From a virus, in IMG/VR virus record IMGVR_UViG_3300045988_179183: a stretch of DNA of 64,000 nucleotides, one strand, 5' to 3'. The notes below the pieces were generated by a model. The model ran no database searches, was not told where the DNA came from, and saw only the letters and a list, made by a program, of their open reading frames with translations. The position numbers and the translations under genes were made by a program. Of the stretch, positions 11,657-30,996 are shown in pieces. The number at the start of each line of letters is the position of its first letter. Positions within the stretch are counted from its first letter, which is position 1.

Positions 11657-13650
11657 TTACGTTAGTATCAACACCTCCGTGTTTTCATTCGCGTAAATAG
11701 CCATTTGTTGATTTCTCTCGTCCCAGTTTGTTCGACCGTTCATAAACAGGATCGTATCCTTACAGTTTTTCAAAATATTTTCGAACGATTCATATTCATT
11801 GGACCAGAAAACAACCGTTCGAAACTGGTAATTCTGCTCAAGCGTGATGATGGCGTAATCACCCTTTCGTCCAGTTTTTATTGCGATTTCATACACATAA
11901 CCCCCAGCCGTTAAATTATAACTTTTCGTTTCCAAGGGATCGTCCACTATTTCCGAAAAATCTTTGAAAGGATACTCCGAATCACCAACCATCTCCTTGA
12001 AATAATCCAAGTATAATTTTGAGTAATTGAAAAACGCCAAACCACACAATTTCTTCTGCCTCAAATTATGCCACCACTCTAGTTTCACCTTATCGGGATT
12101 CAACTCAAACACATCTTTTTCCTTATCGATTTTTACCTTATTAACGGTTCTGTATCGTTTTATAAGTTTTATCCTGTCTATAACGTTTGATATTGATTCT
12201 AGCTTATCGAAAGCACCACATGAAATCAAATTTTCTATAACACTTTTATTAACGGCACTTCCTTTCTGTGAATGACGGTCTAAAAATTCATCAAAACCAA
12301 AGTAGGGGCCGTTCTCGGATCTTTCCTTCATGATCTCCGCTTGTGCCTTCTCGCCGACCTGTTTCACTGATGAGATTGACCACACCAAACTTTTATCAGT
12401 GAAATCTGTCTTGATCTTATCCGTCGATTCATTAATATCAGGGGGGGTCACCTTGATATTTCCTATTTCATTTATCTCGTGTAGATAAACGGGGAAATCA
12501 TCATCATCAGCGTAGGAGAACGCAACGGACCAGAAAGCTAACGGATAATTTACTTTTAACCACTGACACGCGTATCCTGTGTTTGCATACGCGACCGCGT
12601 GGGATTTATTGAACTGATAATCAGCCATATTCTCAATTTCCTTCCATGTCTCTTCCGCGTATTTTTGATCAACACCGAAATTCTCGATATAATTTTTCAA
12701 AAATCTTTCCCTGAAGGGTTGAAGTTTCTCCACGTTCTTCTTACCAATCGCACGGCGTGCGCCATCCGCGTCAACAAGATTAAACCCTCCTAACACTTGG
12801 AACATTTTCATTGTCTGCTCCTGCCATATCATGATATACCGGCTACTTTGAAGTATTTCTCCCGCCCCTTTTCTAAATGATACTTCCCTCTCACCCTTTT
12901 TACGAAGGATATACTCGTTATGGAAATTTCCCTCCATAACCCCCGGTCGATATAACCCAATACAGTTTACAAGCTCTGTTATGTTATCGGGCTTTAACAT
13001 CTTACAATATCCGGTTAACCCTTTCGCGCCAAAATGAAATACATCACCATTCCACCCCCTTTGAAAATACGAGTAAACTTTCGGATCATCAAGAGGTAAT
13101 TCATAGAGGTTGATTTCTTCACCAGTATCATCTTTGATTAATTTCAATATATCACCGAACTTACTTAACTGCAAGATTCCCAGAATATCCTCTTTCAAAA
13201 AACCCGCGGTGTCAAGTTCACCACCCTCCCACTCACTGATCAACATATCACCCTGCCGGCGAATCGGATTCCAATGATACATATCCTTTTCATCCGGGTA
13301 AATCATCATGGCACATGCGTGAATCGATTTCGCCTTAGGTTGACCCTGTATCAAGCCGACCATCTCGATGATCTCCGGGTTTCTGTTAATGAAATTCGCG
13401 ACATCTTTTTTCTGACAGGCGATTCTGAATAAATCATCAAAATCCTTCACACCATCTATTTTAGAAGTAAATGAGTTTACCTCTGCGACGGGGACACCTT
13501 TCAACCTACATAGATCCTTGACGGCGGCCTTGACTTGAAGAGTCGTGTAGGTTCCCACGGAGCAAACTTGATCGGCACCGTAACGCTCCTCCATGTATCT
13601 TTTAACTTCCGGTCTTCTCGCCATCTCGAAATCAGTATCGATGTCCCTTA
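11657..13650 (-). CDS. dnaE: DNA polymerase III alpha subunit (DnaE), downstream exon / C-terminal part
   Basis: The ORF-track protein starts at MARRPEVKRYMEERYGADQVCSVGTYTT. The frame is open a further 23 codons upstream with no ATG/GTG/TTG start and encodes ...AARLRDIDTDFE, the Pol III alpha catalytic Asp pair (E. coli PDFDVDF). Downstream motifs: FHFGAKGL, YRPGVMEG, FNKSHAVAYA. The 5' boundary near 13650 is approximate. Confidence 0.85.
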
Positions 13651-14643
13651 GTCTGGCAGCGAACCGTGCTTGATTCGCTGCCGCTTTTCTAATTTAATTG
13701 ATTTAACTATATATTCCATTTCAAATTTTGTTTTATCTGTTTTACAAATCTAGATTTTTCAATAAAAGACATCACCTTTCTCCTTATATCTGTTTCTCTT
13801 AAATACACCTCCGTATATAAAGGAACCCATTTCCTTTCGAATAGCTTGCCTTTCTGAAGAAAAGTAAGTAATGTATCATGATTACCACTCGGTGATAATG
13901 TTTTTTGTGCGTCATAAGCAGATAGAAATTTATGTACCTCTAAAGTATAAATATTTATCATCACAATCGGTTTCGCATTCGGATTAAGACTCCCTTTCGC
14001 AACACCCCGGTCTTTTCGGATTACTGAGATATGATCCTTCATTTCCTGGGACCATTTATTCCCATAATTACCATTTTTCCCACCCACTCGTCTCGGCGGC
14101 TTAATACCGCCAATTTTTAAATTTAGTGTTCGTCGATCTCTCACCCACTGATGATCAACTACACGTTTTTCCTGAATCAATGCATCATCTACGGTATTAA
14201 AATACAACAAATTCACTCTCTTAAACGCACCAACCCCGTACAATCTCACGCAATTACCTAATGGCATTGGTAAAGGGTCCTTGTAATCTTTTAAACCGGT
14301 GGAGTAATCCGTCTTGATTCCGCCACCAATATAAGAATCTTCCACTGTTTTTGATGAATGAACCCCAACATATACTTTTCCGTTTACCATACAGGTTGTT
14401 TTATACAAAATATTATAAAGGTTATTGTCACCCTTAAACGGATTCTTTTGTCCGTTCGAGCATTTTGCTAATATCTCCTGATCCGACACTAACGATTCTA
14501 TCTCCATCTTTTAAATCTTGAGCTTTTACATCTAATTTTTCTCCCGATCTAAAAATACACACTTTATCATCAAAATCCAACTCTATATCTAAATTATTAT
14601 CGAATGTGATTTTTACAACGTCCACTTCAACTTGTTGACCGAT
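13625..14643 (-). mobile_element. Intervening sequence in dnaE, probably a group I intron carrying a GIY-YIG homing endonuclease (boundaries approximate)
   Basis: Separates ...LLFERFLNKGR (codons ending ~14644) from ...RDIDTDFE (13627-13650), which are adjacent motifs in DnaE. Contains a free-standing GIY-YIG ORF. A 9-bp stem ggcagcgaa/ttcgctgcc (13655-13663/13674-13682) lies just 5' of exon 2. Confidence 0.6.
13707..14507 (-). CDS. GIY-YIG homing endonuclease
   Basis: 266 aa. N-terminal NLYNILYKTTCMVNGKVYVGVHSS...YIGGG fits the GIY-(10-11 aa)-YIG module. Basic C-terminal region with repeated GxxNxNxK-like motifs (GGKNGNYGNKW, GSLNPNAKP), typical of the NUMOD-type DNA-binding tails of intron endonucleases. 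Confidence 0.8.
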   Translation of the reverse strand: MEIESLVSDQEILAKCSNGQKNPFKGDNNLYNILYKTTCMVNGKVYVGVHSSKTVEDSYIGGGIKTDYSTGLKDYKDPLPMPLGNCVRLYGVGAFKRVNLLYFNTVDDALIQEKRVVDHQWVRDRRTLNLKIGGIKPPRRVGGKNGNYGNKWSQEMKDHISVIRKDRGVAKGSLNPNAKPIVMINIYTLEVHKFLSAYDAQKTLSPSGNHDTLLTFLQKGKLFERKWVPLYTEVYLRETDIRRKVMSFIEKSRFVKQIKQNLKWNI

Positions 14644-16056
14644 ACGACCTTTATTCAGAAAACGTTCGAATAGCAAATCGTAATCAAACGGGTTAATGTG
14701 CGTCAGACCCAATAAATAGGCGACGAGGGAGCCACAAGCTGATCCACGGCCGAACCCTACGAGTATACCTTGACGTTTACACCATTGGGTGATATCCCAA
14801 AGTATCAAGAAATAATCAACAACATCTCCGTATTTAATTACATCTATCTCAGTTTCAAGTCTATCAAGATACTTCTCTTGTTCATCAACATCACTTATCC
14901 CCATGCTATTAAACCCATCCGCGACCAAGGATATAAGCATATCAACTTTTGATCCATCATATTTCTTGAACTCCTCCTCGGTCATTTTATATTTAGGAAG
15001 ATGACGTTGTGATAGATCGACCTTGAAATTACTACACCTTTCAGCGATATCATTTGTGTTCTCGATCGCGAATCCGATGATATCAAGCATAATATCTTGG
15101 TCATTATCAGAGAATAACTCCCTAATCTCCATCAAATATTCTTCGTTACATTTGAAGTATTGATTTTTTGAAAAATCGTTACTTATACCCGCGGATGAAT
15201 TCAACGCTTTTTTCAGATAGAAATATTCTTGGTCCAAATAATACGCATCACAGATATTTGTGGGCAACATGGAACTTGAGAAATATTCCTGAAGATTCAA
15301 AAGATATACCCTATCTCTTTCATTTGAATCAAACTTAACTGAATCAAGTTGATAGTATGTGTTCATCAATTCTTTCGGCACATCTTTAAATTGCAGGCTC
15401 TTCGGGTCAATCACGATAATTAATCCCTCTCTCAATGACAGAAACTTTCCTTCATCGATCCTCACATTATTATCAACGTTAATTTCCTTGTTGATAGAAA
15501 GAAGGTTCATCCACCCTGTTTCATCCACGACGTAAACCTTCACATCGTACAGAAGATCTTTCTTTTGATTGAACACGGTAACGGTTTCACCGATCACCGG
15601 TTTCAAACCGTGTTTCTGGCATTCCAACTGAAATTTAAGCACACCCGCAAGTGTGTTTTTCTCACAGATACCCAAAATACTCACACCGAAAAAATTCGCT
15701 TTTCGACACCAATCTCCATAATCTCCGGTTCCGTTCAATAATTCAAACGGACCTCTCACTCCCAGAAATGATTCGGTCGGTAAATCACTATCAACCTTAC
15801 CGATATATTTCAAGAGTTTCAACTTCACTTTCGATTCATTACCCTTTCTCAAAGTGTAATACAGACGGCCGAACTTATAGATGTAATTATTCGCAGTGAT
15901 GGGTGTTCCTATGTAATTAAACCCTCGATCAAACAGAAGTCCGTCGACATTGGGCCCTGATAATTCATATGTATCACCATCCATTGTGATAATACCCAGG
16001 TCGGAAATATCATATATAAATCCATTGCGATCGAGATACGATAACAGTTCTTTCAT
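14644..16056 (-). CDS. dnaE: DNA polymerase III alpha subunit (DnaE), upstream exon / N-terminal PHP-domain part
   Basis: ORF 14434..16056. DnaE-like sequence (FLGVRGPFELLNGTG, GICEKNTLAGV, VGFGRGSACGSLVAYLLGLTHINPFDYDLLFERFLN) ends at ~14644. The remaining 69 codons are read-through into the intervening sequence. Confidence 0.85.
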
Positions 16057-16104
16057 ATTTTAAATATAATGGGAACCCTTTTACGGGGCCCCGTAAATTC
16101 AAAT

Positions 16105-16701
16105 TTATATCTCGCCCTGGCTGGAATCACAACTCGATGCCTCAATTGCCTTAACACACTTGTAAATATACACGTTGCTTTTTCCAAGAATGGTTGCTAT
16201 TTCAGCTTTTTTCTTTCCCTCAGAGAGAAGTTGTTTGATTTGAGGTAATAGTGGGTTACTGAGAGAGATCACACCGTTTCTCTTCCCGGTCACTGACTGT
16301 TTCTTCGCCTTCTTCTCAGCCGGTTTTTCATCCACACTTTTATCCGTTTCAACTGTGTGCTTCCTGAAATCATCCGGGTTGAAATTTTCACGGAATGAAA
16401 GGATCGCATCCAACTCACTCTCTTCAAGATCCTTCATATCGCGATCATCAACAATCGCGTCAACCCTGGCGTATAAATCGCATGCGCCAAACGCCGCCAG
16501 TTGATCGTAAAATTCGGTTGCCTGATCGCACTTGCTCTTTACATCCTGACCCAGTTGATCCGCAACCGAATTCTTTCGAGCCTCATATTCTTCCAATGTC
16601 TCAACTAATTTTAAATTAGACATTGTGATATAATTTTTAATTCCACGAATTGATGCTTCTTTACGAAGTTCCTCACGGGTCATTTCACTAAACTTTTTCA
16701 T
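16105..16701 (-). CDS. putative DNA-binding protein (SAP/Rho-N-like N-terminus, C-terminal HTH)
   Basis: 198 aa. MTREELRKEASIRGIKNYITMSNLKLVETLEE resembles SAP/Rho_N helices. C-terminal KKAEIATILGKSNVYIYKCVKAI is HTH-like. Confidence 0.45.
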   Translation of the reverse strand: MKKFSEMTREELRKEASIRGIKNYITMSNLKLVETLEEYEARKNSVADQLGQDVKSKCDQATEFYDQLAAFGACDLYARVDAIVDDRDMKDLEESELDAILSFRENFNPDDFRKHTVETDKSVDEKPAEKKAKKQSVTGKRNGVISLSNPLLPQIKQLLSEGKKKAEIATILGKSNVYIYKCVKAIEASSCDSSQGEI

Positions 16702-16745: not shown

Positions 16746-16776
16746 TAAAGATACACAATGTTTATTTATTTACCAA
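16746..16776 (-). promoter_or_regulatory. Bacteroidota-type promoter, conserved-box class (copy 2)
   Basis: Minus strand reads TTGG-N19-TATCTTTA within AATAAACATTGTGTATCTTTAGAC. It lies 45 nt upstream of the CDS start at 16701. Confidence 0.55.
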
Positions 16777-17569
16777 CGAATCCAGCAAAAAATCGGTACT
16801 TTTCAATATTAAATTTTATGTCATTCCATTGAGATTGTTGTACATCGATACCCACCATCTTATGAAGCATCACGGGAATTTTTTCTTCAAGTCCGCTATC
16901 CGTATATCTTACACCGTGTAAACCATGAATAACTGGATTAGATGTATCGATACTTCTGATAAAGTGATACTTATCCTCGTTATATTGGCAAACTTCTTGC
17001 GGTAATACTGTGCCCAGTAAATGCAACGGCTTTTCACAATCCATAACACCGTGATTGATGAGCTGGTCAATGAACATTTTTCTTCCTCTACAATATGCCT
17101 TCGATGTATTCTCATCAGCCGCGAGACTTAAATAAATGGGTAAGTTGAAAGGTAGCGCAACCATATCACAGCATTCGACCATGCATTTATAGCATTCGAC
17201 AAGTTCATTCCAACTTATCCCCTGAACAACACCGATTGAATAGCTGCACGATATTTTCTCCCACGTTCTCGCCATTCTCATCGTTTCTTTCGCATTTCTC
17301 AAAACATCGGGTAAAACGTAATAAGTTGGCTTCAGTGCCTTAATCCATGAACGAAATCTATTTGCGTCAAATGCCGACCCCAATTCGAACACTGAATTGT
17401 CAAGAATTACCTCGCGTCCCTTGTTAACAAGCGCATCCATGAAAAATTCGAAATAATCGCCACCTATATCGGGATCTTCAAACAAGTGAACAAGTGCGTA
17501 ATCATAATCAGTCATCGATTGAACCTTGTTCATAATCGATAACGGTGCTTCATGCGCTATCTTAATCAT
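16766..17569 (-). CDS. Divergent TGT/DpdA-like TIM-barrel protein (second transglycosylase paralog, tentative)
   Basis: 267 aa. VILDNSVFELG matches TGT DSGGFQ, IGVVQGISWNE matches GGLAxGE, PLHLLGTVLPQE matches hLLGxGxP, and IRSIDTSNPVIHGL matches DmFDcVxPTRxArxG. The same motif order is seen in the adjacent bona fide DpdA (20477..21373). Overlaps the QueC stop by 8 nt. Confidence 0.45.
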   Translation of the reverse strand: MIKIAHEAPLSIMNKVQSMTDYDYALVHLFEDPDIGGDYFEFFMDALVNKGREVILDNSVFELGSAFDANRFRSWIKALKPTYYVLPDVLRNAKETMRMARTWEKISCSYSIGVVQGISWNELVECYKCMVECCDMVALPFNLPIYLSLAADENTSKAYCRGRKMFIDQLINHGVMDCEKPLHLLGTVLPQEVCQYNEDKYHFIRSIDTSNPVIHGLHGVRYTDSGLEEKIPVMLHKMVGIDVQQSQWNDIKFNIEKYRFFAGFVGK

Positions 17570-19292
17570 TGTGTTGATATTTTATGGGATCCGTCATTCC
17601 GTTTAATTCAAACGCTTCGAGCCGCTCGGTACAATTATGCACCAAATATCCCTCACAAATAAATGAACCAGCACTAGTCTTAATATCATATACATGTGCC
17701 TCCTTAACTGGTTCATCTATTTTATTTACCACCACTTGGTCTAAAAGCCTTATTGAATTATATGTGCCTAACTTTTCAAGCATCGACGCACGTTTTCCCG
17801 CACCGTACTTTAATGTAATTATGTACGGTCTTGTTACTCTCCAAGTTTGCATAAGGGTACCGCCCTCTTTAAAACCGGGCGTAACGGATTGCGACCTGTC
17901 ACACTTAATCCCCAACAATGATAATGCTTTATCGATTTGAATACACTTTTCTTTATTCACAATCACTGCTTGGCTTATAGAAAAACCGAATGATCCATTT
18001 GATTTATTATGACAAGCACACCCATCAGCTATCAACATTCCGTTTAAATACCCGCGCAAATACTCAGGGTGTTCATTAAATTTTGTCTTCTCAAGAAACA
18101 CAGGACCATAACCGCCACCAGCACGGTGCATGTTGGTATCCTCCCTGTAAGTGATTTTTACATCACATGGCTTGATATATTTATCATAAAGAGACCAAAA
18201 TTCTTCCAATACATCGAACTCCTTTTGAAATGTATGAACACCCCGTGTGTCAATGGATCCATCACCATCAGCAAATCCACGTAAATAACCCAGGGCGAAT
18301 TTTTCATCATCAACCTCTTTTCTTGTATTTGATACTGGCCAAAATTTCACCATATAAGTAGCATCCTTTCTCTTCATCTCCTCGTACTTTCTATATCTTG
18401 GCCTTAACTTCATATTTGAAGCATACACATAATGATCCTTCGTTAAAAGAAGACCCGCCATATCATATACCGGTTGAATACCATTATCAAACTTATCCAA
18501 TACCTTCGCCACACAAATTTTCTTCGTGTTTTCATCCACGGACCACACTTCGTCTCCAATACAAATATCCTTAATTTGCTTCCATGTATTATCACTCATC
18601 AGTACTTTCTGCGATTCTTCTATACACGACCCACACCTTCCACACGATCTTCCTTCTGGATCGGGATTATAGCACGTGTGAGTGTTACCCAGAACCAAAT
18701 TAATTTCATAATCATTGAACCCGAGGATCGTCATCGCACGTAACCCTTCGGCAAGTACACCGCCCTTATCCATGTGATTGAACGGAGCTTCGTATCCCAC
18801 TCTTTCACTACCCCAATTCGATACTTTAAACGCGTGCTCACAAGCGATTCGAGATTCCTCGGATGTATCAGGATAACAGCAATGATCGCCGCTATGTAGG
18901 CCTAAAAACACATCAACATTACTCTCCGTTTTATTCGCCCATGAAAGTGCCTTCCCATAAATGATAGCGGAAAAGATCACGTTTCTATTTTCAATAACCG
19001 TTGATTTCATATTTTCGGACGCGTAATGACCTTCCGGTATAGGTTCACCACCTACATGAAGGGACGAATTACTGTCACTGAAACAATCCCTCAGATCGAT
19101 AATCTGGTGTGATAACTTAAACCTCTTACCTTGCAAGAACTCAATATTTCTTTTCACCTTCTCCAATTCAACCTGATGCTTCTGACCGTATTGAAAAGAA
19201 TAAGCCTTAACTTCGTAATCATGAGCAAGTAAATACATGAGCAAGCACGTACTATCCAATCCGCCCGATAAACTTAAAATCGCCTTTTTCAT
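17562..19292 (-). CDS. queC: 7-cyano-7-deazaguanine (preQ0) synthase QueC, interrupted by an intein
   Basis: MKKAILSLSGGLDSTCLLMYL (PP-loop SGGxDS), SFQYGQKH. Zinc motif CGRCGS + CTERLEAFELNG is restored after intein removal. The start is more likely ATG at 19292 than the ORF-track start at 19349, being 1 nt after the upstream stop. The exteins sum to ~245 aa. Confidence 0.88.
   Translation of the reverse strand: MKKAILSLSGGLDSTCLLMYLLAHDYEVKAYSFQYGQKHQVELEKVKRNIEFLQGKRFKLSHQIIDLRDCFSDSNSSLHVGGEPIPEGHYASENMKSTVIENRNVIFSAIIYGKALSWANKTESNVDVFLGLHSGDHCCYPDTSEESRIACEHAFKVSNWGSERVGYEAPFNHMDKGGVLAEGLRAMTILGFNDYEINLVLGNTHTCYNPDPEGRSCGRCGSCIEESQKVLMSDNTWKQIKDICIGDEVWSVDENTKKICVAKVLDKFDNGIQPVYDMAGLLLTKDHYVYASNMKLRPRYRKYEEMKRKDATYMVKFWPVSNTRKEVDDEKFALGYLRGFADGDGSIDTRGVHTFQKEFDVLEEFWSLYDKYIKPCDVKITYREDTNMHRAGGGYGPVFLEKTKFNEHPEYLRGYLNGMLIADGCACHNKSNGSFGFSISQAVIVNKEKCIQIDKALSLLGIKCDRSQSVTPGFKEGGTLMQTWRVTRPYIITLKYGAGKRASMLEKLGTYNSIRLLDQVVVNKIDEPVKEAHVYDIKTSAGSFICEGYLVHNCTERLEAFELNGMTDPIKYQHND
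17634..18626 (-). mobile_element. Class-1 intein (331 aa) with LAGLIDADG endonuclease inside the QueC Cys-cluster
   Basis: Starts CIEESQKVLMSDNTWKQIKDICIGDEVWS (Cys1 codon 18626-18624). Block B LLLTKDHYVY. LAGLIDADG blocks LGYLRGFADGDGS and LRGYLNGMLIADGC. Block F HVYDIKTSAGSFI. Ends GYLVHN with +1 Cys (17633-17631). Confidence 0.85.
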
Positions 19293-19293
19293 T

Positions 19294-19878
19294 TTATAAT
19301 CTGTAATTAAATTCCATAATATCCAATACCTGGGAAACTCTTTCGTCAATACTTCCGCTCACATAGTGTATCCCTCGTGGTGCGAAGTCTTGTAACATAC
19401 GCGCGTTTTTCTCAAATAAACGATCGATTTCCTTTTGAAATACTTCATCAGTTGACCGAACTCCGTCGTCCACGATTTTAAACTCCGGCCTCAGTACAAT
19501 GTGATGGCTGTAAAGGGGCTCTATATGAAATAGAAGTTGGGTGACCGTGTCAACCATTTCATCCCAGAGAGGCCTATCCTCGCTCGATGACCTGTCCCGG
19601 TTATACTCCGTGTAGCATAGAACATCTAATAAACATCTATCGGAAATAATATGATCATGCGCTGACATCGCTGACTCGATAATTTCTTTCACATACGAAG
19701 TTGCGATCCAAAGTTGATCATAAATACCCGCTTCCTTATTAATCTTTATGCCGCGATCATTACCTTTCCTTGAAGGAGATCCCATAAAGAGAGATCCCTT
19801 CAAACACTCCTCCTTTTTCAACGCCTCAATTAACGTTGTCTTACCTGTGCATTGAGCACCTGAAATTGATATAATCAT
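19294..19878 (-). CDS. P-loop NTPase / nucleotide-kinase-like protein
   Basis: 194 aa. N-terminal Walker A ISISGAQCTGKTTLIEAL. Its size and layout resemble small (d)NMP kinases or NadR-type kinases. Confidence 0.55.
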   Translation of the reverse strand: MIISISGAQCTGKTTLIEALKKEECLKGSLFMGSPSRKGNDRGIKINKEAGIYDQLWIATSYVKEIIESAMSAHDHIISDRCLLDVLCYTEYNRDRSSSEDRPLWDEMVDTVTQLLFHIEPLYSHHIVLRPEFKIVDDGVRSTDEVFQKEIDRLFEKNARMLQDFAPRGIHYVSGSIDERVSQVLDIMEFNYRL

Positions 19879-19943: not shown

Positions 19944-19966
19944 AACAGAGATTATTTTCTCTGTTT
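19943..19966 (-). terminator. Rho-independent terminator at the end of the dCTP-deaminase-like gene
   Basis: 8-bp stem aaacagag/ctctgttt with an 8-nt loop spanning the stop codon. The minus strand continues TTTTTGTTG. Overlaps the -33 region of the next promoter. Confidence 0.5.
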
Positions 19967-20452
19967 GTCGTTTTGATATTGGCCGTTATATAAATCTTCC
20001 TCGTTTACATCCGTGCAATCATAACAGTAGAACTGGGCCACGCGGGCGTTCTTCTCGATCGTGATTGTGTGAAACACTTCCATGAACGTACCCATCGAAT
20101 CAGTGTGAAAACCCGCGTCGAAAATCGATGAATAAATCCAAGCACCGCACCGGGCAACTGAACTTCGCTGTACTATCCGACCCATTTTGTTTTTGGGTAT
20201 GTTACAACCTTCAATGAAATCAACCATGTAATACCCCGGAGGTAGATGCCAAACTTCGTTTCCATTTATATCAGGAAAACATCGAACTTCTTCGTATGAG
20301 GGTAACATTGTTTTGCCCTCGCGGGGTATGAATCCATGACCTTTCACAACACTTACCTTTCTCAACCGAATATCACATCCGTGCTGGGTTAGATTCTCTT
20401 CTAAATGATTAACGATAACACCTTCTCCGTGTAATTCCTTTCCGTTTAACAT
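19952..20452 (-). CDS. dCTP deaminase/dUTPase-superfamily protein
   Basis: 166 aa. RSSVARCGAWIYSSIFDAGFHTDSMGTFMEVFHT matches the Dcd/dUTPase pattern RSSxaRxG...xDxGfxG... Confidence 0.6.
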   Translation of the reverse strand: MLNGKELHGEGVIVNHLEENLTQHGCDIRLRKVSVVKGHGFIPREGKTMLPSYEEVRCFPDINGNEVWHLPPGYYMVDFIEGCNIPKNKMGRIVQRSSVARCGAWIYSSIFDAGFHTDSMGTFMEVFHTITIEKNARVAQFYCYDCTDVNEEDLYNGQYQNDKQRK

Positions 20453-20476: not shown

Positions 20477-21373
20477 CTATTCAATTATTTCATCATTCTG
20501 TTTTTCATACAAGAACTCTCTCGCTCTCGCGTCAGCGAACGCGTACAAAACTATATCTCGACTCAGATAATGATACGGTATCCTGCCAGATAGATCGGGG
20601 CCGGCACTCCCATACGCATCTTGCCCCGGTACGAGGGTTCCCTCTGCCACTTTCTTCAAAAAATTATTACGTGCCTTCTCAATATTGATGGCGTACCTGA
20701 AAATAGAGAAATCGACCGAATCCGGCATGACAAACCGGGTTGTTTCAACGTTTGAACATCCCAGGAGATGAACGTATTTCCCTTTATCGCGAGCGTACTT
20801 CATCATCTTTCCCAGTTCATCCCTGTACACATGCCATTCCCTACCCTGAGCCAGACCTCCTATCGAAAGGATGGGGTAGAGGGGCGAGTCACAGAGATCC
20901 TTCCAGTATTGAAAACCCTGATGCATTTTAAATACCGGTGCGGGATAGTACCCTGTTATTTCCTTGATCTCGTCTCTCAGATAATTTTTAGGTGATAACA
21001 GGTTATCATCTTTTCTAAAATACTCGTTATCAAGTTCAAAACACATTTTAAACGGATACATTTTAAGAAACCGAAGAAACTTTTTCTTCATTTTCTCGCA
21101 TTCATTCCAAAAATCAGGGTTGTTTTCACCCAGTTTCTTCTGTTTTTTGAATAATGTGAAACCACCGGAATCCAACCATATTCGATCGCCTCCAACAACG
21201 GTTTGAATAAATTTAATATACCCGGCGGTCATATCAACGGTTGAAATTAGATAGTCGTTATCATGTGCAAGCAAAAGTTTTTCCAAGACCTTATCGGACC
21301 TACAACTACACACCAGACCACCACCCAATCCCATCACAAGCCTTTTTTTAGGTTTTTCAAACATATCAATCAA
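20477..21373 (-). CDS. dpdA: DpdA-type DNA (7-deazaguanine) transglycosylase, TGT family
   Basis: 298 aa. IWLDSGGFTLF (TGT DSGGFQ motif), ILSIGGLAQGRE, VHLLGCSNVE, DSVDFSIFRY. Embedded in the folE/queD/queE/queC cluster. Confidence 0.75.
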   Translation of the reverse strand: MIDMFEKPKKRLVMGLGGGLVCSCRSDKVLEKLLLAHDNDYLISTVDMTAGYIKFIQTVVGGDRIWLDSGGFTLFKKQKKLGENNPDFWNECEKMKKKFLRFLKMYPFKMCFELDNEYFRKDDNLLSPKNYLRDEIKEITGYYPAPVFKMHQGFQYWKDLCDSPLYPILSIGGLAQGREWHVYRDELGKMMKYARDKGKYVHLLGCSNVETTRFVMPDSVDFSIFRYAINIEKARNNFLKKVAEGTLVPGQDAYGSAGPDLSGRIPYHYLSRDIVLYAFADARAREFLYEKQNDEIIE

Positions 21374-21803
21374 TACCAGCTATTAATTTATCAAGTTCAT
21401 CTTTGTTATCTTGAAGGGTTGTGATACCGATTTCTTTCATCGCATCCTTGTTGCCTGATTTTTCAACAAGACGTTGAAGGCCTGTATAATTCCATGAGGA
21501 ATACTCACCAACTTTATTATCAGCGACCAAAAAACCAACCTTTTCCTCGTCCGTTAAACCACTAACGACTAAAACATCAAACTCTTCAACGCCAAGTAGC
21601 TGTAACGCTTTGAATCTCGTGTTTCCCGCAAGTATCGTTCCTTCTTCATCAACAACAATAGGATTGATATATCCATATTCTTGGATGCTTTTTGCAACAA
21701 TTTTCGCGGATTTCGAATTTTTTCGAGGATTCAATGGGTGGCAGCGTATGTCACCCACGCTCACCCATTTAATTTCCTTCCGTATTTTCTTTATCGCCGA
21801 CAT
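21366..21803 (-). CDS. ParB N-terminal (ParB/Srx) domain protein
   Basis: 145 aa. VSVGDIRCHPLNPRKNS ... VVDEEGTILAGNTRFKAL is the ParB-box pattern (GxxR). Overlaps the DpdA start by 8 nt and begins 3 nt after the FolE stop. Confidence 0.7.
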   Translation of the reverse strand: MSAIKKIRKEIKWVSVGDIRCHPLNPRKNSKSAKIVAKSIQEYGYINPIVVDEEGTILAGNTRFKALQLLGVEEFDVLVVSGLTDEEKVGFLVADNKVGEYSSWNYTGLQRLVEKSGNKDAMKEIGITTLQDNKDELDKLIAGID

Positions 21804-21806
21804 ATT

Positions 21807-22448
21807 TTATTTTCTCCCGAGTTTATAAATCTGTATCGCTCTTAAAAACTCATCTCGGCTATTCATCTCATTTGTTAAAAACGCCCCCGAACAATAGTGG
21901 GTTGTCATCGTACTATTATCTTCCGCGCCCCGCATACTCACGCACATATGTTCCGCCTCAATATAAACTGCGATACCCAGCACTGTGTCGCCGAATATGT
22001 TAACCAAATAATCATGAATCTGACGAGTTAATTGTTCTTGTAATTGAGGCCGTTTGGCGAACCAGTGAACTATTCTGTTTAGTTTCGAAAGACCAATAAC
22101 TTGGCCACTTTCCTTGCTGATATACGCCAAACTACAGAATCCTGTGAACGGAAGTAAATGGTGTGAACACAATGAATTCACCTCGATCCCATGTTCAATT
22201 ACCATACCTGAGTATCCTGAACTTGGGAATACCGCCAATTTCGGAGGTGCAGAATACGCACCTGACGTGATTTCATTGACAAACATTTTCGCAACCCTGT
22301 ACGGTGTTTTTATCATGTTAGGGTCATTCTTCCAATCATACCCCAGGGCCTCCAAGAACTTACCGTACGCCTCGGTGGCCCTTGCCAACATCTCGTTTCT
22401 ATCATCATCGGAAAGAACGACGTTCCCTCCTGCCATTATTTTTTTCAT
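21807..22448 (-). CDS. folE: GTP cyclohydrolase I (FolE)
   Basis: 213 aa. SLCSHHLLPFTG (CxHH zinc site), RPQLQEQLTRQI, EAEHMCVSMRG. All are hallmark GCYH-IA motifs. Confidence 0.9.
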   Translation of the reverse strand: MKKIMAGGNVVLSDDDRNEMLARATEAYGKFLEALGYDWKNDPNMIKTPYRVAKMFVNEITSGAYSAPPKLAVFPSSGYSGMVIEHGIEVNSLCSHHLLPFTGFCSLAYISKESGQVIGLSKLNRIVHWFAKRPQLQEQLTRQIHDYLVNIFGDTVLGIAVYIEAEHMCVSMRGAEDNSTMTTHYCSGAFLTNEMNSRDEFLRAIQIYKLGRK

Positions 22449-22473: not shown

Positions 22474-23238
22474 CTAAGCATCTCTCTTATCTCCGAAGAT
22501 TATTATATGTAAGCGGTCAGAGTAGAAGTAGCCCAAATCTATACATCTCTGTGCCAACCATTTTCTTTTCTCTGCCAGTTTCTCCTCGGTATCCCCCTCC
22601 GGCATCAGATAGACTATTACAGGCCAGAAGGGGTCCAGTTTAGATACCTCCTTCTTAATTTTCCGAACTTGTCTCTCGACTTCCTTTATATCATCCTCCG
22701 AGGACACCACATATTTCAACTGCGAGAATTTCGATTCCATGATCCATGACACTATAGCGGGGATATTCTCCCTCGTTTTCGCGTGTTTCTCCGCGAATTC
22801 GCCCGAACTCGGAATTGAACTCTTCAATTTAGGTGAGATTGATACGACGTCTACGTACGTATCCTCATCCAGTACATCACCTCTCGCGATGGTTCCGTTC
22901 GTTTCCATGCTCACACTCAACTTATGTCTCCGACCTATCTCGATCAACGATCTCAACAATTCGGGATGAAGGGTCGGTTCTCCCCCGGTAATAAGCATGC
23001 ATTTTATCTGAGGGTTCATGATTATGATATCGACGACATCGTTCAATGAATATTTACCCTTTTCCGGGTTCCACGAGCTGTAGGCCGTGTCACATATACT
23101 CCCTTTAAAAGTACATCTCAGGTTACACCCAGATGTTCTTATAAGAATATGGGGGACCCCCACCTTCATACCCTCTCCCTGTATACAGGTGTGCAAATCA
23201 ATAATCGGTTGAATTTCTGAATAATCCATTTTTAACAT
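22474..23238 (-). CDS. queE: 7-carboxy-7-deazaguanine synthase QueE (radical SAM)
   Basis: 254 aa. IQGEGMKVGVPHILIRTSGCNLRCTFKGSICDTAYS, LITGGEPTL. Confidence 0.85.
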   Translation of the reverse strand: MLKMDYSEIQPIIDLHTCIQGEGMKVGVPHILIRTSGCNLRCTFKGSICDTAYSSWNPEKGKYSLNDVVDIIIMNPQIKCMLITGGEPTLHPELLRSLIEIGRRHKLSVSMETNGTIARGDVLDEDTYVDVVSISPKLKSSIPSSGEFAEKHAKTRENIPAIVSWIMESKFSQLKYVVSSEDDIKEVERQVRKIKKEVSKLDPFWPVIVYLMPEGDTEEKLAEKRKWLAQRCIDLGYFYSDRLHIIIFGDKRDA

Positions 23239-26982: not shown

Positions 26983-29900
26983 TCAATCCAAATCAACAAA
27001 ATCAATCATTGCCTGTACGTTGTTTTCCCTCAAATCTTGTATTGCCATGAACGATGACATACATATATCATCATGTCCACAAACTGATTCAAGAGTCCCT
27101 TTCTTTGAGTTAAACGCGATTGAATTAAATTCACCAAACATCGTATCAACCAACTTTCGTGTGTTTTCATCTCCGTAAGGCACCCTCAAACGTGCACTTT
27201 CAAAAAACGCTGATAGTGAGGGTAGACCTGATTTCAGATCCTTTTTATTCCCTTCAGTTGTGATAAATTCCTCGACATTAACTAATCCCCTCTCTTTCGC
27301 CATACCCGCAAGAATTCTTTGAAATCCATTCGACTCACACACGGATTTGTTCGGTTTATATCTCGCGTTAAATTCAATAAGTTTATTCACTTGAAGATCA
27401 TGGCTCGCACCCTGCTCTCTAAATATATTTATAAGATATATCAATCCGTGTGCATCCATACCCCATACAGTGTATACTGTATAATCGGCACCCACATTAC
27501 CCGATATCGCAAAATCACATCCCACGACAACCCTGACTAACTTTATGGGGTAACTTTCTATATCATTTGCGAAACTGATATGTTCCATCCCACGTATCGA
27601 TCTTTTCAGAAATTCATACGGGAAAATCGTTGACGTGTCCGCGATCGGCACAACTAGATATTCTCGGTTGAAAACTAACGTTCCAAGTGATTTCCGTTCC
27701 TCCGTTAACCTTTTAAACGTAAGACGATCAGGTGCTAACAGTTGACCATTTGGGAAAACCGCCGGGTATTCAAATACCTTGAATCGGCCATCTTTTTTTA
27801 AATCCCCGTAAATATCCGTTGCCGAATACGGTGTGTTGTGTGATATTATCCCATTCGAAATAAACCGATGAGAAATTGGGATTTTGAAATCAACGGTGTA
27901 AGACTCACTCTCAATTATCGATTTTATCGGTGCGAAATGATACTTCAAATTCATATTACTCAAAATAATCTGAACATCAGGATCATTTTGAGGTAAAGAT
28001 AAAATCCATTTTTTTATCGGTCCGTTCATTCTTTTAAAAGAATGAACTTTCGTATAAAAATCCCCCGATCTCATACCGTAAAATTTCATCTTATCATTAC
28101 CCAACGGATATTTTGATCGAATCTTTCTTAATATCACCGATTGAAACGGTATTCCTTTATCAATGCAAGAGGATTCTCTCCTAGTTTCTCGCGGAACCTT
28201 CCCTTTTCCTGAATAAGTGAACCCGATTTTCTCCATGAATAGTTTCACGCTCGAATTTTTGCTTATAACCAAATTGTATCCTGTTCGGTTTGATTTAACT
28301 AATTCGGTTGATTGGCATTTTTTCTTCTCAATACGTGAATCAATCCCCATGTTAAGAAGAAGTATTTGAATCTGCTGGATTAAACGAAAGCTCGTTGAAA
28401 AATAGCTTACATTTATTCCTTTATCTGAACGATGTCCGTGATAGCAGCATCCATCGCCATCAAAACACCCTCGAAGAAACCATATAACATCCTCCTCGGA
28501 CGCACTCATGATTTTATCAGGAATTGTCTTGGTATGCGAATACATCCCTTTTCGATACCCTAAACTCAACCACGTGGAGATTTTCTCCTTGCTATTAAAC
28601 GACATCCCTATGTGATTTTTCTTAGGGTGATACCCCCTCTCATTAATCAGAAAATTTCTTATACCGGGATTCTTTTTTGTTATCGTGACCCTATTTCCAT
28701 AACCACTTAAATCCAACGTACCGTCCGCTATACAAAGCCCGATTTCATAAAGCTCCTCCCCTTCTATACCAAGAGAACGACCCCAAATATTTGACCCCAT
28801 CTTAAACGCGACAAAATCTCCTTCATACAAATCTTTCGCGTTAACCCATTCGAATAAGCCCGTTTCCGAATTACATCTAAGTAAAGGATGAATGAAACTT
28901 GTTTCAATCTCCAATCCGTTTGAAAGGGTTATGATTTTTGTGGGGGTTTTTCCGTTTACGTAATAGTCTGTCGCGTTAACAAATCCCTCACCATCATGAA
29001 TGTTCATATCAAGAGGGAAAAACCCCTTCTCTCTTTCAATATTAACAGGAGATAATTTGCCAATTTCAGTTAAACCGTTTTCGGTAAACACGTACGTATC
29101 TGGTCTCACACAACCGAGTACACATAAATAGCCGAACGGTTCCACGATCGGAGTGATTGACCCGTAAAAAACTTCATGAAGCTTCTCCCTTTGCTCTTGT
29201 GAATACAACGAACTTTCATCAGGCAGGTCGTCGCATACGACGGCACCAACGTGAAGACCTCGAATCATGGAATCTTTCGATCTCAAATGGAGGATTGAAT
29301 CTGTTTCAGTCGTGATTGATGTCGCGGCTAACTTAGCTTTTCCGTTGCGATTCAATTTCTCCCGAAGAATATCATTTTGCTCTATCTCGGAAATAATCAT
29401 CGCGATGTGTTTCTTGCCGAGTGTTTCATTATTCGTAATCATACACGTTTCCTTACGATTCTTATTGTCGATACTATCCCTAAGAAACGTGGTTGGTCGG
29501 TCATAAGAATATAACCTCCATAAAATGAATGCAAAACACCCCTCGTAACTATTATGTACAACGGTCCCATCTTTCAAGAGAAAAAGGTGATCTCCGTCAC
29601 AAGAAAAACCAACATAATCGCCATCACCGATACATTCAACCTTGAGAGAGGTTGATAAATTATCCTGCACCGTGATTTTTGAAGGTATCTTCTTTCTTTC
29701 TATTTTCACAGGAATTTCATCAACATCTCCCGAAATTGTTATCCTGTAATGAGTATAATCATGAAGGATGTTTTCACCCTTTAATGTTTTCACCTTTACA
29801 TCTGCCGTCCGAGTTATAATCGAATTACATCTGAATCCCAATGATTGAGCAAGTCTTTGCGTTTGCTCTATTAAATTCCTGTCCTTAAACCCAATTTCAA

Positions 29901-30996
29901 AAGCATATTTACTTCGAGGATTTCCTTTTTTATACTGGGATGAACCGTCAGTATCAATTAACCCGGCTAAAAGTTTCAACCGTTGTTCCCTTGATCCAAG
30001 AAGATAAATTTCAGGTATATGCTTATTACCAAGAACCCCTAAATCTTTAAGAGCGGTTTTTAGGCGGTTTTTGAATAACCTTTCTTTTTCAATAATTCGA
30101 TATGAATATTTATTTGAATTATGTTTTGACAAAATAAAACCGTTTTTCTCACAAAATTCATTTAAATATTCAATTATTTCATGATCAATAGTTGTCACTA
30201 CGGGTTCCGTGTATAAACCATCACCCAACCACAACCCCAATAAATACGGATCAACAGGAAGGTCTTTTTCAGGAAGGTCCCACCCCTTCGTTCTATACCC
30301 CATTATTTTTCTCTGAGTGTACCCTGGCATAGAGGGGATCTCCTCAACGGGAATATTAAAGGTTTTCCAGCGCATATCTTTCCCAATACGTTTTTCATAT
30401 CGAGATGGAACCTTCTTTTTGCAACAAACAATATGACCCTCGTTTACAACGTAATCAATACCCCATGTTTGTTTCACTTTCCACATTCTCGATCTACCTT
30501 TGTGTAAAGATAAAACGGTTCTTGGTTTTGAATCGGGCCCCATAACTTGATCTCCGATCGAAACATCCTTTATCTTGCGAATCGTTCCATCAGCCATCAC
30601 TATTTCTGTCTCGGGAGATAAACACTTTCCCGATGAGCGGCTCGCTAAAATGCAGTTATACAAATATAACTGGAATAGGTTACCCCATTCAAGGTTTCTC
30701 CATCCCTGTCGAAACGTTGGAAGACAAACAGTTTTAAAATAATTATAACTCTGCTTACGTAGCGAGAGGTCCATGCTCTTCTCCACGTTGGCGAGATATT
30801 CCAGTTTTTCCATGTCAAGAGTTCTATCCATGTGGGTAACGATGCATGTTTGTTCTCTCATCACGGATAGAAGCCGATCCAAATCATTTTCATAACCTGA
30901 AAGTAACTCTTGGATCGCCTTCGGTGGTAAACTCGATATTATCTCCCTGACGTAGTTATCTATATAGCTTTCTTGTACGGGAGATAATAACATCAT
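26983..30996 (-). CDS. terL: Terminase large subunit (TerL) interrupted by two inteins
   Basis: The exteins (124+146+283 aa = 553 aa) carry Walker A ILASRSSGK|S, Walker B GAVVCDDLPDES, the coupling motif VLG|TPYS, and the RNase-H-like nuclease motif VVVGCDFAISGNVGADYTVYTVWG ... HDDICMS. Confidence 0.85.
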   Translation of the reverse strand: MMLLSPVQESYIDNYVREIISSLPPKAIQELLSGYENDLDRLLSVMREQTCIVTHMDRTLDMEKLEYLANVEKSMDLSLRKQSYNYFKTVCLPTFRQGWRNLEWGNLFQLYLYNCILASRSSGKCLSPETEIVMADGTIRKIKDVSIGDQVMGPDSKPRTVLSLHKGRSRMWKVKQTWGIDYVVNEGHIVCCKKKVPSRYEKRIGKDMRWKTFNIPVEEIPSMPGYTQRKIMGYRTKGWDLPEKDLPVDPYLLGLWLGDGLYTEPVVTTIDHEIIEYLNEFCEKNGFILSKHNSNKYSYRIIEKERLFKNRLKTALKDLGVLGNKHIPEIYLLGSREQRLKLLAGLIDTDGSSQYKKGNPRSKYAFEIGFKDRNLIEQTQRLAQSLGFRCNSIITRTADVKVKTLKGENILHDYTHYRITISGDVDEIPVKIERKKIPSKITVQDNLSTSLKVECIGDGDYVGFSCDGDHLFLLKDGTVVHNSYEGCFAFILWRLYSYDRPTTFLRDSIDNKNRKETCMITNNETLGKKHIAMIISEIEQNDILREKLNRNGKAKLAATSITTETDSILHLRSKDSMIRGLHVGAVVCDDLPDESSLYSQEQREKLHEVFYGSITPIVEPFGYLCVLGCVRPDTYVFTENGLTEIGKLSPVNIEREKGFFPLDMNIHDGEGFVNATDYYVNGKTPTKIITLSNGLEIETSFIHPLLRCNSETGLFEWVNAKDLYEGDFVAFKMGSNIWGRSLGIEGEELYEIGLCIADGTLDLSGYGNRVTITKKNPGIRNFLINERGYHPKKNHIGMSFNSKEKISTWLSLGYRKGMYSHTKTIPDKIMSASEEDVIWFLRGCFDGDGCCYHGHRSDKGINVSYFSTSFRLIQQIQILLLNMGIDSRIEKKKCQSTELVKSNRTGYNLVISKNSSVKLFMEKIGFTYSGKGKVPRETRRESSCIDKGIPFQSVILRKIRSKYPLGNDKMKFYGMRSGDFYTKVHSFKRMNGPIKKWILSLPQNDPDVQIILSNMNLKYHFAPIKSIIESESYTVDFKIPISHRFISNGIISHNTPYSATDIYGDLKKDGRFKVFEYPAVFPNGQLLAPDRLTFKRLTEERKSLGTLVFNREYLVVPIADTSTIFPYEFLKRSIRGMEHISFANDIESYPIKLVRVVVGCDFAISGNVGADYTVYTVWGMDAHGLIYLINIFREQGASHDLQVNKLIEFNARYKPNKSVCESNGFQRILAGMAKERGLVNVEEFITTEGNKKDLKSGLPSLSAFFESARLRVPYGDENTRKLVDTMFGEFNSIAFNSKKGTLESVCGHDDICMSSFMAIQDLRENNVQAMIDFVDLD
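27835..29112 (-). mobile_element. TerL intein 2 (426 aa, LAGLIDADG) in the ATPase coupling motif
   Basis: Starts CVRPDTYVFTENGLTEIGKL (Cys codon 29112-29110). Block B IETSFIHPLL. LAGLIDADG blocks IGLCIADGTL and FLRGCFDGDGC. Ends SNGIISHN with +1 Thr (27834-27832). Confidence 0.88.
29551..30624 (-). mobile_element. TerL intein 1 (358 aa, LAGLIDADG) in the Walker A P-loop
   Basis: Starts CLSPETEIVMADGTIRKIKDVSIGDQV (Cys codon 30624-30622). LAGLIDADG blocks LLGLWLGDGL and LLAGLIDTDGS. Ends LKDGTVVHN with +1 Ser (29550-29548). Confidence 0.88.

Follow-up and report, generated by a model that had tools for sequence, protein, structure and literature searches.

A DpdA3-subfamily transglycosylase and a second, distinct DpdA-like protein in one phage deazaguanine island, with a possible nucleotide-level route to guanine replacement

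Why does a single phage deazaguanine island encode two proteins of the tRNA-guanine transglycosylase (TGT) fold, and on which substrate does each act? The question arises in IMG/VR virus record IMGVR_UViG_3300045988_179183, of which we analysed a stretch of 64,000 nucleotides (the window). One of the two genes (the target) lies at the end of the island and directly follows queC; the other, whose product we call DpdAx, lies at 20477–21373. We find strong support for assigning the target to the DpdA3 subfamily of the TGT/DpdA transglycosylase superfamily, as a minimal TIM barrel. A first-pass annotation made from the sequence had read the target as a second, very divergent TGT/DpdA-like protein on the strength of four motifs. 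Translation confirmed an ATG-started open reading frame (ORF) of 267 amino acids on the minus strand at 16766–17569, and the motifs quoted for it (VILDNSVFELG, IGVVQG, LHLLGTVLPQE and SIDTSNPVIHG) are all present, in the forms REVILDNSVFELG, SIGVVQGIS, KPLHLLGTVLPQE and RSIDTSNPVIHG. The neighbouring translation likewise carries LDSGGF and IGGLAQG.

Pairwise comparison of the target with DpdAx gave nothing significant (BLASTP, E = 1.4). Searches of Pfam, NCBIfam and PADLOC with hmmscan were empty, with no Pfam family at E ≤ 1, PF01702 (TGT) included, and the PDB, queried at sequence level with the target alone and with profiles A1 and A2, returned chance matches only; no structure of DpdA3 or DpdAx appears to have been deposited there. 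Shallow alignments of 45–49 sequences reached hhalign probabilities of only 3–16%. A deep DpdA3 profile of 135 diverse sequences, drawn from 50%-identity representatives, aligned with the DpdAx family at E 2.2e-4 and 45% probability through HLLGC and xVDxS (xxDxS), and the extended alignment paired LDNSVFEL of the target with LDSGGFTL of DpdAx, placing D57 and F61 on the LDSGGF motif. With E. coli TGT the same profile gave a weak match (E 0.003) that is in register over strands β4–β8, pairing IGVVQG with FGIIQG, KPLHLLG with KPRYLMG, and D208 (SIDTS) with the nucleophile D264 (DMFDC).

The AlphaFold2 model of the target, built from 49 homologues (pLDDT 95.4), has eight strand–helix units arranged as a (β/α)8 barrel. 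In a Foldseek search of the PDB the top four matches were tRNA-guanine transglycosylases (E 3e-8 to 6e-6, TMq 0.60–0.68; best matches 7nq4, 1q66 and 4hqv), generic TIM barrels ranked below them, starting at E 1e-4, and the list of BFVD structural matches was dominated by phage TGT/DpdA annotations. The proposal of a second, highly divergent TGT/DpdA-fold protein is therefore borne out: where a different fold had been named as the result that would count against it, structure comparison ranked TGT first, with a TM score of 0.83–0.85 to the DpdA3 protein of phage phiST. The motif alignment behind the proposal fails at the level of pairwise BLASTP and holds at the levels of profile and structure. 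Its ordered landmarks map onto TGT strands, and the counterparts D57, Q116 and D208 are invariant; three of the four equivalences were right, and the remaining one needs correction, as IGVVQG corresponds to FGIIQG/FKMHQG of strand 5 and not to GGLAQG of strand 6.

Negative searches of this kind (pairwise BLAST, Pfam, NCBIfam, PDB sequences), hhalign probabilities as low as 10–45% and the presence of other TIM barrels in the Foldseek list from E 1e-4 are also what one would expect of an unrelated barrel, a hydrolase or aldolase, with motifs that look like those of TGT by coincidence. We regard this as barely credible. TGTs are the four best matches by three to four orders of magnitude, phage TGT/DpdA entries dominate the BFVD list, the alignments are in register with the catalytic residues, linkage to FolE, QueC, QueD and QueE is near-obligate, and the phiST member of the family matches PF01702 in HHpred at 98.8% (PMC10516641). 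We rejected a chance likeness because of how the structures rank and how the genes are linked.

The fold is that of a tRNA-guanine transglycosylase, and a homologue appears in one JGI record under the name queuine/archaeosine tRNA-ribosyltransferase, so that one of the two enzymes might be a true TGT that modifies host or phage tRNA and reprogrammes translation. TGTs, both the bacterial enzymes and human QTRT1/QTRT2, are indeed the best fold match of the target and correspond to it motif by motif along the strands. However, the target ends about 60 residues past the nucleophile strand and has no CxCxxC zinc motif, whereas E. coli TGT, 375 residues long, carries CDCYTC beyond residue 300; the target has 267 residues and DpdAx 298. 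There is thus strong support for the absence from the target of the zinc subdomain and the C-terminal tRNA-binding region of tRNA TGTs (EC 2.4.2.29), and because it lacks that subdomain and is about 110 residues shorter, besides having no PF01702 match, it should not be classed with the tRNA TGTs. DpdAx lacks the same three features (zinc subdomain, C-terminal region and CxCxxC). Both lie in the midst of genes for replication and nucleotide metabolism, and DpdA3 phages have chemically proven modified DNA (PMC10516641). We rejected a tRNA target for want of the zinc subdomain and hold it to be highly improbable.

Which family, then, does the target belong to? A tblastn search of 50,697 phage records gave 19 matches. 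Over 98% of its length the target is 43.3% identical to a protein of Flavobacterium phage vB_FspM_immuto annotated 'DNA guanine transglycosylase, DpdA' and 37.5–38.6% identical to hypothetical proteins of Campylobacter Firehammervirus phages, such as CP220 gp056 (~38%); a more distant homologue, 27% identical, is encoded by Campylobacter phage CC_R7. The model aligns with phiST M4SLA5 at E 4e-17 and TM 0.83/0.85 (Foldseek), and the sequence matches PHROG 19058 at E 2e-46. DpdA3 was defined as a subfamily by Cui et al. in 2023, on an HHpred prediction, from CGPG_00065 of Cellulophaga phage phiST, and the 43% and 38% identities, together with the TM score to this founder, place the target in it (PMC10516641); our literature search found no further paper mentioning DpdA3. 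The family comprises 1798 clusters at 90% identity, or 3402 representatives at 50% identity (E ≤ 1e-3), and at least 556 loci in IMG/VR; counts given below are drawn from the 80 best loci or from 83–84 DpdA3 loci. Among 185,579 species genomes there were only 12 matches, all on contigs of metagenome-assembled genomes, and we therefore take the family to be virus-restricted. When 15 kb of the island was compared with the 50,697 phage records by megablast, nothing matched, so this uncultivated phage has no sequenced close relative among these isolates.

The three founders illustrate what such enzymes are associated with. Guanine replacement is complete in CP220 (7-amido-7-deazaguanine, ADG), phiST (7-deazaguanine, DG) and immuto (formyl-preQ1), and the ADG nucleoside has been seen in the cytoplasm of infected cells (PMC10516641). 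The target resembles the founders in length, invariant motifs, full-length sequence and structure, and in linkage to deazaguanine synthesis genes and a thymidylate-kinase-like gene. It differs in that the window's pathway stops at QueC, predicting 7-cyano-7-deazaguanine (preQ0) where the analysed phages carry ADG, DG or formyl-preQ1, and its translational coupling to an intein-containing QueC sets the window apart. So does its second TGT-fold gene, accompanied by a ParB_N partner; tblastn found no such gene in CP220 or immuto, and phiST has none either (PMC10516641).

In bacterial DpdA the essential residues are Asp95, the acid/base, followed by Phe99; Asp130 and His181, for base recognition; Leu236; and the nucleophile Asp256 (PMC10164549). 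Candidate counterparts in the target are D57/F61 (LDNSVFE), D88 (LPD), Q116 (VVQG), L184/L185 (HLLG) and D208 (SIDTS), and these lie at the C-terminal ends of strands 3, 4, 5, 7 and 8 of the model. The conservation check that the first-pass annotation had suggested came out positive: D57, F61, D88, Q116 and D208 are invariant in 49 sequences, and the candidate residues are kept in the most divergent DpdA3 members (Q or H at 116), including all those that coexist with DpdAx. There is thus strong support for the target keeping candidate counterparts of the general acid/base (D57), of the base-recognising residues (D88 and Q116) and of the nucleophile (D208). Judged by its residues, the target is predicted to be catalytically intact, and its predicted chemistry is the exchange of guanine for a deazaguanine through a covalent Asp–deoxyribosyl intermediate. 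FolE, QueE, QueD and QueC are all encoded within 7 kb of the target on the same strand, and no QueF, amidotransferase, DpdL, DpdM or DpdN was found in the window's operon; because the operon gives the full pathway to preQ0 and nothing beyond, the base inserted is predicted to be preQ0.

Coupling of the target to this pathway is visible at its start codon. The stop codon of queC (TAA, 17562–17564) and the ATG of the target (17567–17569) fall within a common octamer, ATGATTAA, confirming the 8-nt overlap that had been noted, and a comparable overlap joins queC and the DpdA3-like gene of CC_R7 (9007 versus 9001). Translational coupling of DpdA3 to QueC, in an operon making preQ0, is therefore strongly supported, as is the co-expression with preQ0 synthesis proposed earlier. 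The genes of the same-strand block run in the order QueD, QueE, FolE, ParB_N, DpdAx, DCD-fold protein, kinase, QueC and, at the 3′ end, the target. The first-pass annotation had placed the target at the end of the island: it is the last deazaguanine gene, but an ORF at 16105–16701 and a hairpin come after it, and this hairpin (16092–16072) is, from its sequence, the probable end of the transcription unit. The 198-aa product of ORF 16105–16701 (minus strand, directly downstream of DpdA3) is confined to the window's own clade and has no match in Pfam or PHROGs; by eye, its N terminus resembles a SAP/HeH-type DNA-binding motif and its C terminus a helix-turn-helix.

DpdAx carries the orthodox DpdA motifs LDSGGF, ELDNEY, HQG, IGGLAQ, HLLGC and PDSVDF in the family alignment, and its AlphaFold2 model (pLDDT 93) has TGT as its best, weak Foldseek match (E 1.7e-4). 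It has no Pfam, NCBIfam or PADLOC match. Its family numbers 195 clusters, and among the 50,697 phage records tblastn found one relative, in CC_R7 at 47% identity, and no match in CP220 or any other record. DpdAx is a separate, unannotated TGT-fold family, distinct from DpdA3, and of the pair it is this neighbouring 'DpdA' that is the less orthodox, with no library match and a single phage homologue. A ParB_N protein is encoded directly upstream of DpdAx in 37 of 47 loci, CC_R7 included. A DpdA3-family gene lies within 10 kb in 33 of the 46 IMG/VR DpdAx loci, and the rest are mostly second DpdAx copies whose contig also carries DpdA3; conversely, DpdAx is present in 8 of the 80 best DpdA3 loci, all 8 from the window's own clade. 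From these counts it follows that the two-enzyme arrangement is recurrent and asymmetric, DpdAx depending on DpdA3 and not the reverse, and the co-occurrence analysis that had been called for is thereby answered: DpdAx is nearly always found with DpdA3, and most DpdA3 loci are without DpdAx.

The earlier remark that the arrangement had not been described stands in part. The target protein itself is the DpdA3 published in 2023 (PMC10516641), whereas for the two-DpdA arrangement our literature search, whose scope did not extend to the supplementary tables of Cui et al., found no paper, and the paper on CC_R7 mentions neither the DpdA3-like nor the DpdAx gene. As far as we have searched, the combination of DpdA3, a distinct DpdA-like family and a mini-ParB in one island looks new.

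Some contigs hold still more of these genes. Two tandem DpdAx genes follow a ParB_N gene, in addition to DpdA3, at L099–L102 and L104, and pairs dispersed about 9–15 kb apart on one contig accompany DpdA3 at L110, L116/L121, L112/L123 and L117/L127, so that each of these phages has three TGT-fold genes; in the aligned representatives (tandem, L101; dispersed, L116/L121 and L110) the catalytic motifs are preserved in both DpdAx copies. CC_R7 (PQ092953; L003 and L004) has been described as a Firehammervirus close to CP220, yet its DpdA3-like gene is far more divergent (27% versus 38%). That gene is preceded by QueC, the ParB_N–DpdAx pair lies about 74 kb away, and all of these are annotated as hypothetical or 'DNA binding protein'.

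Two TGT-fold genes in one operon could encode a heteromer in which DpdA3 is a non-catalytic or regulatory partner of DpdAx, as QTRT2 is of QTRT1 in eukaryotic TGT (PMC10164549), where two paralogous TGT-fold subunits coexist as in the window; that DpdAx nearly always occurs together with DpdA3 would fit. QTRT2 is, however, unlike both window paralogues, which keep their catalytic residues, and in DpdA3 all residues at catalytic positions are invariant, also in every member found beside DpdAx. Moreover, 72 of the 80 best DpdA3 loci, as well as CP220 and immuto, are without DpdAx, and phages with DpdA3 alone are fully modified (PMC10516641). The non-catalytic option, which the first-pass annotation had listed, is thus disfavoured and very unlikely, and we rejected it on the retained catalytic residues.

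The closest parallel to DpdAx and its partner is bacterial. In Salmonella Montevideo the ParB-like ATPase DpdB is required for insertion into DNA by DpdA (PMC10164549), and by analogy the ParB_N protein resembles a DpdB-like partner of DpdAx. The catalytic layout is alike (acid/base Asp, Phe at +4, base-binding Asp, His/Gln, nucleophile Asp), and the adjoining DpdAx and ParB_N (GxxRxxA) genes of the window mirror DpdA and DpdB. The differences are also clear: bacterial DpdB has about 400 residues, whereas the window ParB_N protein has 145, comprises the NTPase domain only and is without the DpdB C-terminal domain; the DpdC–K restriction module is absent from the window; PADLOC has no match for either window transglycosylase and, for the ParB_N partner, only a methyltransferase-linked ParB_N match; and most phage DpdA3 genes are without a ParB partner. 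The phage enzymes DpdA1 and DpdA2 (Enterobacteria phage 9g and Vibrio phage nt-1) are likewise TGT-fold enzymes beside FolE, QueD, QueE and QueC, and they match the target weakly in structure (E 1e-5 to 1e-4, TM ~0.5), without BLAST-level similarity to either window protein. Their modification is partial, at 30% or less (PMC10516641).

The neighbours of DpdA3 bear on its substrate. We counted them in a full-flank set of 55 viral DpdA3 loci, each flanked on either side by 4.5 kb or more. The commonest partner is a thymidylate-kinase-like AAA_28 kinase, found in 49 of the 55 (64 of 83–84 overall). An NTPase of the DCD/dUTPase fold or of the MazG-like type is present in 45 (18 + 27), never both, and kinase and NTPase occur together in 41. 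The commonest gene order in this set is MazG, DpdA3, formyltransferase, kinase, QueF, PolA; in CP220 it is HD-phosphohydrolase/P-loop protein, DpdA3, kinase, and in CC_R7 it is QueC, the DpdA3-like gene, kinase, DNA polymerase. FolE lies within 10 kb of DpdA3 in 66 of 83 family loci, and the kinase adjoins DpdA3 even where there is no Que gene within that distance (L002, L024, L033, L047, L073, L076 and L080). Natural fusions join dUTPase to DpdA3 and DpdA3 to formyltransferase. By comparison, kinase and NTPase partners occur in none of 18 DpdA1 loci (phage 9g type, with modification of 30% or less). The two families also differ in charge: DpdA3 proteins are acidic (median isoelectric point (pI) 5.4, with 5 of 252 basic) and DpdAx proteins basic (median pI 8.05, with 69 of 113 basic).

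The fused proteins carry an N-terminal trimeric-type dUTPase domain or a C-terminal PurN-like formyltransferase (DpdN), and one has a NUMOD3 homing-endonuclease motif; they are P0028 (408 aa), P0287 and P0368 (447 aa) and P0244 (475 aa). Other genes also recur around DpdA3. In 30 of 83 loci (for example, L001:5843–6235) the gene for a small type-I phosphoribosyltransferase (Pfam Pribosyltran) separates QueE from FolE; this enzyme might salvage guanine set free by the exchange, or it might ribosylate a deazaguanine, as happens in the synthesis of toyocamycin. In 19 loci among L005–L084 (for example, L083:7142–7720) there is a gene for a DNA/RNA non-specific endonuclease (Endonuclease_NS) some 2.8 kb upstream of DpdA3, and an ORF resembling class-II glutamine amidotransferases follows QueC in 21.

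We propose that the two enzymes divide their work by substrate, with DpdA3 exchanging the base on deoxynucleotides before replication and DpdAx, with ParB_N, acting on DNA; we put this forward tentatively, at close to an even chance. In this scheme the dUTPase-fold NTPase (elsewhere a MazG-like or HD enzyme) would convert dGTP to dGMP, DpdA3 would swap guanine for preQ0 on dGMP and not on DNA, the adjacent thymidylate-kinase-like kinase and the host nucleoside-diphosphate kinase would raise the product to the deaza triphosphate, and the phage's own polymerase would incorporate the preQ0 nucleotide. Such a route would lead to total replacement of G, as in every DpdA3 phage analysed so far, and DpdAx with ParB_N would be a DNA-level, DpdA/DpdB-like enzyme for residual guanines or a particular sequence context. 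We favour exchange at the nucleotide level because of the kinase and NTPase linkage, the fusions, the DpdA1 control, the pI, the 100% replacement and the cytoplasmic ADG, and also because heterologous DpdA3 left plasmid DNA unmodified and a DpdA-like/ParB_N pair coexists with it. DpdA3 would then be the first TGT-fold enzyme to act on a free deoxynucleotide (dGMP to dPreQ0-MP), founding a pre-replicative route that is backed, in the window's clade and in CC_R7, by an undescribed DpdA subfamily and mini-ParB correcting guanines in DNA. This fuller claim we consider a serious possibility, somewhat below an even chance.

Base replacement before replication has precedents: T4 employs a dCTPase, a dCMP hydroxymethylase and the gp1 kinase, and S-2L and phiVC8 employ MazZ, PurZ and DatZ. 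The triad around DpdA3, namely a (d)NTP pyrophosphatase, a base-altering enzyme and a dNMP kinase, would be analogous to these pathways, with incorporation by a phage polymerase. In the proposed DpdA3 route, however, a transglycosylase would exchange the whole base instead of modifying it in place. The likeness concerns how the route may work and is not one of membership.

Several points weigh against exchange on the nucleotide. To our knowledge, no TGT-superfamily enzyme uses a mononucleotide, and all those characterised flip the base out of tRNA or DNA. Kinase, dUTPase and MazG are common housekeeping genes of large phages, and the mutual exclusivity of DCD and MazG could mean no more than one dUTPase per phage, which weakens the argument without removing it. 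The loci are phylogenetically non-independent, many of them from immuto-like marine phages, and the DpdA1 control loci come in essence from a single lineage of small siphoviruses. Little weight can be put on net charge, because E. coli TGT has a pI of 6.0 and yet binds tRNA. The NTPase and kinase specificities in the scheme are putative, and the equivalence of D88 derives from where it lies in the secondary structure, the end of strand 4, and from a low-confidence alignment. Finally, the discoverers of DpdA3 read it as a post-replicative DNA enzyme (PMC10516641).

On that published view DpdA3 is an efficient transglycosylase that replaces every guanine of duplex DNA with preQ0 after replication, and DpdAx with ParB_N is a second DNA enzyme, for another context, base or form of DNA, or a back-up. 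The homologous enzymes all act on polynucleotides, the roles of the catalytic residues are identical to those in the DNA-acting bacterial DpdA (PMC10164549), and Cui et al. propose that insertion is post-replicative because every deazaguanine phage has a DpdA (PMC10516641). However, the characterised DNA-level DpdAs reach 0.1–30% of G and not 100%, and efforts to demonstrate activity of DpdA3 in E. coli were unsuccessful, heterologous expression leaving plasmid DNA unmodified (PMC10516641). Nor does post-replicative action sit easily with the tight, lineage-spanning linkage and fusions of DpdA3 with nucleotide-metabolism enzymes, or with an acidic, minimal barrel that has no extra domain, and it would make DpdA3 redundant with the coexisting DpdAx and ParB_N, which resemble a DNA-level DpdA/DpdB module. 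We regard post-replicative replacement by DpdA3 as quite possible, if distinctly short of an even chance.

Features of the deazaguanine island and of its downstream end
Coordinates	Strand	Feature	Basis or remark
16072..16092	-	Terminator-like GC-rich hairpin, then T-run	Consensus scan only; downstream of DpdA3 and ORF 16105-16701
16766..17569	-	DpdA3-subfamily 7-deazaguanine transglycosylase (target)	ATG start, 267 aa, bare (β/α)8 barrel
17562..19349	-	QueC with intein and LAGLIDADG homing endonuclease	Pfam QueC 4.6e-36, LAGLIDADG_3, Intein_splicing
19294..19878	-	P-loop nucleotide kinase (AAA_28; thymidylate kinase elsewhere)	Pfam AAA_28 4.5e-13; phrog_2107 thymidylate kinase 1e-27
19952..20452	-	dUTPase/dCTP-deaminase-fold (d)NTP enzyme	Pfam DCD 1.6e-13
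20477..21373	-	Second TGT-fold protein (DpdAx), 295-298 aa	Likely start 21364; phrog_887 queuine tRNA-ribosyltransferase 1.6e-10
21366..21803	-	ParB_N-domain protein, 145 aa	Pfam ParB_N 4.3e-8; phrog_620 1.3e-33; GxxRxxA NTP motif (AGNTRFKA)
21807..22448	-	FolE, GTP cyclohydrolase I, first preQ0 step	Pfam GTP_cyclohydroI on 97%-identical relative
22474..23238	-	QueE, radical-SAM 7-carboxy-7-deazaguanine synthase	Pfam Radical_SAM/Fer4_12 on relative L085
23462..24037	-	QueD, 6-carboxytetrahydropterin synthase (PTPS family)	Pfam PTPS on relative L085

The QueC ORF encodes 595 residues, against about 245 without the intein. Its true start is likely to be the ATG at 19292, which matches relatives, and the upstream TTG start is probably spurious. 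The intein is polymorphic among near-identical relatives, L005, L007 and L010 having the long form and L008, L009 and L011 being intein-free. The best PDB relative of the DCD-fold protein is a 'probable dUTPase' (9w59, E 9e-15), and we infer that the protein is a dNTP pyrophosphatase supplying or clearing the guanine nucleotide. The kinases of CP220 and immuto found no match as PDB queries, which argues against 9wd2 being a structure derived from either phage.

Elsewhere in the window, a 1337-aa ORF on the minus strand (26983–30996) has a terminase RNaseH-like C terminus, together with domain signatures that indicate two inteins or homing endonucleases (Hom_end_hint/Hom_end near residues 125–424 and Intein_splicing/LAGLIDADG_3 near 683–1054). 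A DnaE-type DNA polymerase III alpha subunit (11657–16056, minus strand) is split within its NTPase/palm domain into ORFs 14434–16056 and 11657–13624. Between the halves, and overlapping the upstream one, lies a 266-aa ORF (13707–14507) with no Pfam match, perhaps an ORF of an intron or one for a free-standing homing endonuclease.

No phages other than those with DpdA3 are known to exchange all of their guanine for a 7-deazaguanine, and how DpdA3 phages reach complete replacement is still a question for the field because DpdA3 activity has never been demonstrated. The target is a new member of this known family, and the composite island a variant of known deazaguanine systems; should the published view be true, the finding amounts to that new member and an extra paralogue, and its interest would be modest. 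The context statistics (kinase, interchangeable NTPases and fusions) point instead to exchange at the nucleotide level, which can be tested with a few purified proteins. The island also reveals a DpdA-like family with a ParB_N partner, a family hardly ever found apart from DpdA3; both enzymes are encoded by CC_R7, a phage in culture, which offers an experimental handle. Enzymes that yield deaza-dNTPs, or DNA in which a deazaguanine replaces every guanine, would be useful, and a better grasp of how phages evade restriction and CRISPR would be of practical use as well.

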